7,102 nucleotides of DNA from a virus (lineage: Duplodnaviria; Heunggongvirae; Uroviricota; Caudoviricetes): the IMG/VR virus record IMGVR_UViG_2531839468_000011, one strand, 5' to 3'. Below the pieces are notes generated by a model, which saw nothing but the letters and a program-made list of their open reading frames with translations, made no database searches and had not been told where the DNA came from. A program made the translations under genes and the position numbers. Each line of letters begins with the position of its first letter. Position 1 is the stretch's first letter. Positions 2 to 838 of the stretch are shown piece after piece.

Positions 2-838
2 CTGCAGTACAGCCAGCAACAGGCACAGGTGGAAGGGCAGATTGCTGCTGCCAGACAGTCAGCAGGCATTGCCACTGACAGGATGACAGAAGCGCATAAA
101 CAGCTTCTGGCTCTGCAGCAGCGCATCAGCGACCTGGACGGGAAAAAACTGACGGCAGATGAAAAGAGTGTGCTGGCCCGTAAAGATGAACTGATTCAGG
201 CACTGACGCTGCTGGATGTAAAACAGCAGGAGCTTCAGAAACAGACGGCACTCAACGAGCTGAAGAAAAAAACAATTCAGCTGACCAGTCAACTGGCTGA
301 AGAAGAGCGCGCTCAGCGTCAGCAACATGACCTGGATATCGCCACGGTGGGTATGGGTGATCAGCAGCGGCAGCGATATCAGGTACAACTGAGCCTTCGC
401 CAGAAATGCCAGCAACAGCTGGAGCAGTTGAGGCGGGATAGTGAGCAGAAAGGGACATATAACACGGATGACTACAGAAAGGCCGAGCAGGCGCTGACGG
501 AGAGCCTGAACAGACAACTGAATGAGAATCGCCGTTACTGGCAACAGCTTGAAATTGCTCAGGGTAACTGGAAAAACGGTGCCATGCGGGCGTTTCAGAA
601 TTTTACGGCAGATGCGGATAATGCGGCAGGCACTGCGGAGCAGATGCTTACAGCGGCATTTAACAGTGCAGGTAATGCACTGGCAACATTCTGTACCACC
701 GGAAAACTGAACTTCAAATCTTTTACCGCCTCGCTCCTTTCTGATCTGGCAAAAATCATGGCTCAGATGTCCATGATGCAGGCAGTTAAGGGATTGGTTC
801 GGCGTTTGGCTGGGGGAGTGCAGCAACTGCCAGTGTGA
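2..838 (+). CDS. H: Tail tape measure protein (λ gpH-like), internal segment; 5' end lies upstream of the window; terminates prematurely at TGA 836-838
   Basis: Frame 2 is open from position 2 with no upstream stop, so the gene continues beyond the window. Product is Q/A/L/E-rich, consistent with the helical tape measure body. It ends at TGA 836-838, while the tape-measure-like sequence continues in frame 1. Identity by recalled similarity to λ H, not searched. Confidence 0.85.
   Translation: MQYSQQQAQVEGQIAAARQSAGIATDRMTEAHKQLLALQQRISDLDGKKLTADEKSVLARKDELIQALTLLDVKQQELQKQTALNELKKKTIQLTSQLAEEERAQRQQHDLDIATVGMGDQQRQRYQVQLSLRQKCQQQLEQLRRDSEQKGTYNTDDYRKAEQALTESLNRQLNENRRYWQQLEIAQGNWKNGAMRAFQNFTADADNAAGTAEQMLTAAFNSAGNALATFCTTGKLNFKSFTASLLSDLAKIMAQMSMMQAVKGLVRRLAGGVQQLPV

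Follow-up and report, generated by a model that had tools for sequence, protein, structure and literature searches.

The tape measure gene H on the analysed stretch of DNA (7,102 nt, called the window as a whole) was found to lack one G. Three G were present at positions 790-792 (plus strand) where every relative has four, and the gene had no single uninterrupted reading frame, the frame changing after Gly887. As recorded, H of the window is thus a pseudogene of the gpH family and not an intact member. Either a miscall in sequencing or a knock-out of very recent date accounts for the broken gene, biologically nothing new in both cases, and the miscall was considered the probable origin. An earlier note, made from the letters of the window, had offered an inactivating slip or a homopolymer sequencing error, and these two options are the ones that survived.

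Two reading frames of one tape measure gene

The upstream part of H (2..838, plus strand) was read in frame 2, with codons at 2, 5, 8 and so on, and ended at TGA 836-838. By translation, its product consisted of native residues 624-887 followed by 14 out-of-frame residues (LVRRLAGGVQQLPV) before the stop. Frame 1 was closed by TAA 787-789, then open from 790 to TGA 1204-1206, and this downstream part (790..1206, plus strand) encoded native residues 887-1024. Its stop overlapped the start codon of M (ATG 1203-1205) in the sequence cgATGAaa. The frame-2 stop, and the frame open from 790 and ending in an ATGA overlap with M, were therefore true as first described. The span 2..1206 is 1205 nt, and the remark that one more base would make it 402 codons holds as arithmetic.

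Both peptides matched the intact tape measure protein of E. coli A20 (1024 aa). The frame-2 peptide was identical in 261 of 265 positions over residues 624-888, while the frame-1 peptide was identical to residues 887-1024 in all 138 positions, starting at its first codon (790). The C-terminus of lambda gpH also matched the frame-1 peptide (E = 2e-22; 39/66 identity to gpH 788-853), and the PHROG tape-measure families were matched by this peptide at their C-terminal ends. The frame-1 ORF was thus rightly taken for a tape measure C-terminus. These matches to intact H put the two-ORF pattern far beyond chance, and the two ORFs are clearly one lambda-type gene H split by a net deficit of one base, as had been proposed. 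In the source record, the gene called for the downstream piece was shorter (835-1206, 123 aa), with a GTG start at 835 that shares bases with the upstream TGA in the sequence GTGA (835-838).

In the H fragment of the window, the Pfam families TMP_4 (E = 1.2e-13) and Tape_meas_lam_C (E = 1.4e-24) were identified. The intact A20 homologue carries TMP_2, TMP_4 and Tape_meas_lam_C, with TMP_2 lying upstream of the start of the window contig. The Tape_meas_lam_C match ended just before the break, at fragment residue 262 (885 in the numbering of the full protein). The place of H in the tail module was that of the lambda type, with H followed by M, L, K, I and J according to Pfam matches of the called genes, and with G and T upstream of H in the annotated synteny of the relatives.

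Lambda gpH (PDB 8IYK/8IYL/8K35) shares with H of the window the gene order H-M-L-K-I-J, the Pfam regions and a nearly identical stretch of the last 46 residues, helix 818-849 included, whereas the intact homologue of the window protein exceeds lambda gpH by 171 residues, with an overall identity of 26%. Much closer was the 1024-aa prophage form (WP_096980452.1 of A20; Orf37 of phi458), with a protein identity of 98-100%. Phage phi458, recorded with the lab strain MC1061 as host, encodes an intact H of 1024 aa, the last 138 residues of which are in frame and identical. In lambda gpH and these E. coli homologues the frame was intact, and only in the window was it broken after Gly887 with one G missing.

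The part of H behind the break contains the counterpart of a structurally known helix. In the alignment with lambda gpH, the offset was constant at 171 residues, which puts the counterpart of lambda residues 818-849 at residues 989-1020, encoded by codons 1096..1191 (plus strand). Chains of PDB 8iyk/8iyl/8k35 and 9e7m matched this stretch (8iyk_H, 9e7m_Ha). In virion structures of lambda, residues 818-849 of gpH are the C-terminal helix, and three such helices build a coiled coil seated on the tripod of gpI inside the lumen of the tail tip (PMC10721106; PMC12617516).

Among the phage matches listed (60 of 661), the great majority carried this region within one tape measure gene, the others were unannotated or named 'hypothetical protein', and a separate C-terminal CDS was annotated in none of them. 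The small PHROG families 17344 and 10930, which match the tape-measure C-terminus, were for this reason taken as similar annotation fragments and not as evidence for a functional split.

Position of the missing base and its occurrence elsewhere

In a DNA alignment with four relatives, the window had one gap of one base, at TTAAGGG-ATTGG. This gap at 790-792 was obtained in a second alignment, made over the full 7.1 kb with two complete genomes, DEC9B and ETEC4069. The lesion is thus a change from G4 to G3 (GGG at 790..792, plus strand) in the codon of Gly887, where the two H frames join, and it stands at the extreme left edge of the interval 790-838 to which the earlier note had pointed. The ancestral junction reads ...MMQAVKGIGSAFGWGSAATASV..., or spelled out ...MMQAVK-G-IGSAFGWGSAATASVTPNADGGVYQ....

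The base had previously been supposed lost from the run GGGGG at 812-816, which is present as described, from an ancestral G6 that would give the peptide ...RRLAGGSAATASV.... This is almost certainly wrong: a G6 would formally reopen a single frame by arithmetic, and the run does lose one base in other assemblies, but it was G5 in 45 of 47 fetched relatives, as in the window (812..816, plus strand), and G6 in none, and frame 1 already matched intact H from codon 790. The stretch 790-816 encodes GIGSAFGWG (residues 887-895) in frame 1, identical to intact H, so the frame must change upstream of 812. The idea of a lesion in a G homopolymer is therefore retained, with the run moved to 790-792, and the alignment to tape measure relatives once suggested for placing the indel did place it, at this other site. 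The repaired peptide must likewise be replaced, the ancestral one being ...MMQAVKGIGSAFGWGSAATASVTPNADGGVYQ... (138/138 match to intact H).

The 47 fetched loci consisted of 43 IMG/VR contigs, collected with a pattern allowing G3 or G4, and four annotated relatives; GGGG stood at the equivalent of 790-792 in all 47. The exact window allele was absent from all 142 complete E. coli genomes in which the 70-nt segment occurs, and their best matches were all at 98.6%, the difference being the one gap. Metagenome contigs scanned with the exact G3 pattern gave no match, and neither the G3 nor the G4 allele was matched in a collection of species-representative genomes. When the 123-aa ORF was looked up across public assemblies, seven contigs were found, and G3 was present in the window contig only; five of the other six had an independent change of G5 to G4, and one was scrambled between the G-runs and one base short. 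The G3 allele is unique to this record.

The loss of one G from the G5 run, about 20 nt downstream of the window lesion, was observed at the equivalent of 812-816 in CP025902, in the Logan contigs L048, L050, L052, L053 and L054, and in 2013C-3264, and these records yield the same 123-aa downstream ORF as the window. In the finished STEC genome 2013C-3264 (NZ_CP027544.1), PGAP marks H (MJ68_RS30810) as 'frameshifted' and gene L as 'frameshifted; internal stop'. Such pseudogenes resemble H of the window in that one G is lost from the same gene within the same 49-nt interval, but they lost it from the G5 run and the window from the G4 run, and in 2013C-3264 the L gene is broken too, whereas the window has no second lesion. 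The G5 to G4 records could be a single inherited defective lineage or a recurrent hot spot of error or slippage.

The record CP025902.1 (Escherichia phage 500465-3) is an unannotated 13.5-kb 'complete genome'. Compared with the window it contained more than 20 one-base deletions from H to J, mostly at G-rich sites (GG, GGG, GGGG/GGGGG). It looks like an error-laden record and not a real phage genome, and it served as a comparison case for homopolymer-length errors.

The source contig and its tail module

Contig AFDT01000079.1 of GCA_000225085.2, a draft of 2011, is identical to the window over its full length. Project AFDT belongs to the porcine enterotoxigenic E. coli (ETEC) strain 3030-2 (PMC4358887). 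A published sequencing method for AFDT itself was looked for and not found, while the neighbouring accessions AFDQ, AFDR, AFDU, AFDV, AFDW, AFDZ and AFEA are documented as the work of one centre, with 454 Titanium FLX paired-end reads only and Celera 6.0 (PMC3491183). The AFDT accession falls inside this AFDQ-AFEA block, and judging from these neighbours AFDT is probably also 454-only.

Codon 623/624 of H marks the start of the contig, and its end lies within J, at codon 1036 of about 1130. The H and J regions are typical repeat sites among the lambdoid prophages of one genome, and the contig is probably bounded by repeat-affected sequence of the draft assembly or is itself such sequence.

All genes behind H were open. 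M, the distal tail protein (1203..1532, plus strand; Pfam Phage_min_tail), was intact, with its start overlapping the H stop. An ORF check gave open frames for L (1532-2230), K (2235-2978) and I (2915-3517), followed by a small lipoprotein-like ORF of 112 aa (3590-3928) and by J, which had 1036 open codons from 3995 to the contig end at 7102, all on the plus strand. The G deletion was the sole indel in 7.1 kb against DEC9B and ETEC4069. With these genes open and no other indel, there was no sign of prophage decay, and the description of a defective prophage made earlier is not borne out by any second indel or by damage to the remaining genes of the contig. The contig has 30 homopolymers of 5-7 bases, all as long as in the relatives, which argues that the consensus was not generally poor.

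In the L gene, 12 substitutions against all three close relatives were clustered near the 3' end, especially at 2000-2250. This patch shares 98.9% identity with the L genes of other prophages of E. coli and is, on sequence grounds, probably a recombination mosaic; possibly two prophage copies were merged into one chimeric consensus in the draft. In the public gene index, no contig but this one carried the 232-aa L protein of the window, so an independent assembly of the same prophage, in which G3 or G4 could be checked, was not found.

Between I and J, at a place without a gene in lambda, lies the 112-aa ORF. It encodes a signal peptide of the lipoprotein type (MNKTILFCTIIALTGCKS), matched PHROG 914 of unknown function (E = 6e-33) and gave no Pfam match. 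In the relatives it is annotated as 'hypothetical protein' (WP_153274582.1), and the Prodigal call in the source record covers no more than its final 41 codons. It is likely a moron or an exclusion-type lipoprotein. A 625-aa ORF was observed antisense to J (4595-6472, minus strand), and antisense open frames of 568-749 aa opposite J were also present in A20, DEC9B, ETEC4069 and phi458. This is probably an effect of codon composition and not a gene.

Origin of the deletion and its meaning for gpH

The missing G at 790-792 is probably a homopolymer-length miscall in a 454 consensus and would then not be a property of the living prophage. By such a miscall GGGG would have become GGG and the last 137 codons of the 1024-codon H would have been shifted to another frame, while the real gene would be intact and read ...AVKGIGSAFGWGSAATASV.... 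The miscall of homopolymer length is the characteristic error of 454 sequencing, and about one frameshift error per few tens of kb may be expected roughly for a 454-only draft. All independent sequences of the locus lack the indel, which falls within a homopolymer. The frame is kept, too, by a viable phage, phi458. An artefact is favoured by the singleton allele, the homopolymer site, the probable 454 platform and the lack of any other lesion. The single-base undercall is of the 454 type, and the batch of neighbouring accessions is 454-only.

On the other side, a run of four bases is short for a consensus-level 454 error, and the 30 runs of 5-7 bases were correct. Real frameshifts of H also occur in finished genomes, such as 2013C-3264. 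The artefact reading further depends on a platform that was deduced from neighbouring accessions.

A genuine, very recent and strain-specific deletion, arisen by replication slippage in the G4 run, is less probable and yet a serious alternative. Homopolymer slippage is the commonest source of natural frameshifts, and the lesion does stand in the deposited sequence. Frameshifted H genes in finished genomes and other assemblies, broken 20-25 nt away in the G5 run, agree with a real event, as do the 30 longer homopolymers, all of the right length, which is unlike a poor consensus. If genuine, the 901-residue H would keep TMP_2, TMP_4 and Tape_meas_lam_C, no infectious particles would be made, and prophage decay would have begun with this deletion. 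Lambda-like siphophages conserve the lost region, which is part of the tape measure gene among the matches listed (60 of 661) and holds the gpI-binding helix, so that its loss would be inactivating. Against this, the G3 allele did not occur in any of the other genomes, viral contigs and metagenome contigs searched, the event must have been extremely recent as no further lesion was present in 7.1 kb, and the probable platform makes just such errors. As a guess, a single real frameshift is present in a few percent of those prophage tail modules that are intact in all other respects. Setting this rate beside that expected for 454 drafts led us to hold the artefact as probable and the recent mutation as plausible at a lower level.

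It is very improbable that the two-frame arrangement is functional. One form of this idea is a programmed -1 shift at AAG GGA, in which tRNA-Gly re-pairs on GGG 790-792 and full-length H is restored; a slip of tRNA-Gly from GGA to GGG would give the exact ancestral peptide. Another is a naturally split tape measure, with a gpH*-like upstream piece and a gpHC-like 123-aa piece re-initiated at GTGA 835-838, where the first-ORF stop overlaps a GTG. Lambda gpH is naturally cleaved to gpH* and gpHC in a glycine-rich/hydrophobic zone at about 690-712, the exact site being unknown (PMC12617516), and the shift site, aligned to lambda gpH residues about 698-699, falls inside this zone.

The arrangement was nevertheless shared by no relative, with G4 in 47/47 loci and the window allele in 0/142 complete genomes; intact relatives with the same two frames, which had been named earlier as the sign of a recoding event, were looked for and none was found. 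No slippery heptamer of the form X XXY YYZ was present at the shift site (GTT AAG GGA TTG, where T AAG GGA is unfit), and the downstream RNA at 794-880 (87 nt) folded no better than its shuffles (-26.6 kcal/mol against a shuffle mean of -26.3, z = -0.10). Conserved recoding was rejected on these three grounds, the unshared arrangement, the missing heptamer and the missing downstream structure. The known programmed -1 frameshift of the lambda tail chaperone genes G/GT, upstream of H, is conserved and uses a slippery heptamer. It belongs to the same tail gene cluster and, like H of the window, has two overlapping frames for one polypeptide, but the window H has neither its conservation nor a heptamer or downstream structure.

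For a split, the closest sequence of Shine-Dalgarno type before the GTG is GGAG (815-818), and its distance of 16 nt is too large for an effect; moreover, no separate C-terminal CDS was annotated among the phage matches listed (60 of 661). Cleavage of lambda gpH comes after tail assembly (PMC12617516), implying a need for the covalent link during assembly, which counts against a split.

The frameshift of the window immediately follows the Tape_meas_lam_C region and aligns to the cleavage zone of lambda gpH, and the match of the break to this zone is probably a coincidence. Still less credible than a functional arrangement in general is the combination of a real deletion, a split at the gpH*/gpHC site, GTGA coupling that supplies both pieces, and tails that still assemble; if it were true, the covalent link between the ruler and its tip anchor would be dispensable for tail assembly.

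For a miscall, the preferred origin, as for a genuine deletion, the case is an ordinary one-base frameshift in a structural gene of a prophage, such as is already flagged by annotation pipelines. Its practical value is the correction that the break lies at GGG 790-792 (ancestral GGGG), the repaired peptide being ...AVKGIGSAFGWGSAATASV.... As the draft is probably 454-only, the H split is no evidence of a defective prophage in ETEC 3030-2 unless the site is resequenced. If the deletion is real, the product would have 901 residues, 887 native and 14 out-of-frame, and would be 123 residues shorter than normal. Native residues 888-1024 (137 residues) would be absent, the gpI-docking helix included. 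By analogy with lambda, loss of the tip anchor should block tail initiation, and a prophage whose H lacks the gpI-docking C-terminus would thus be predicted to be tail-less.
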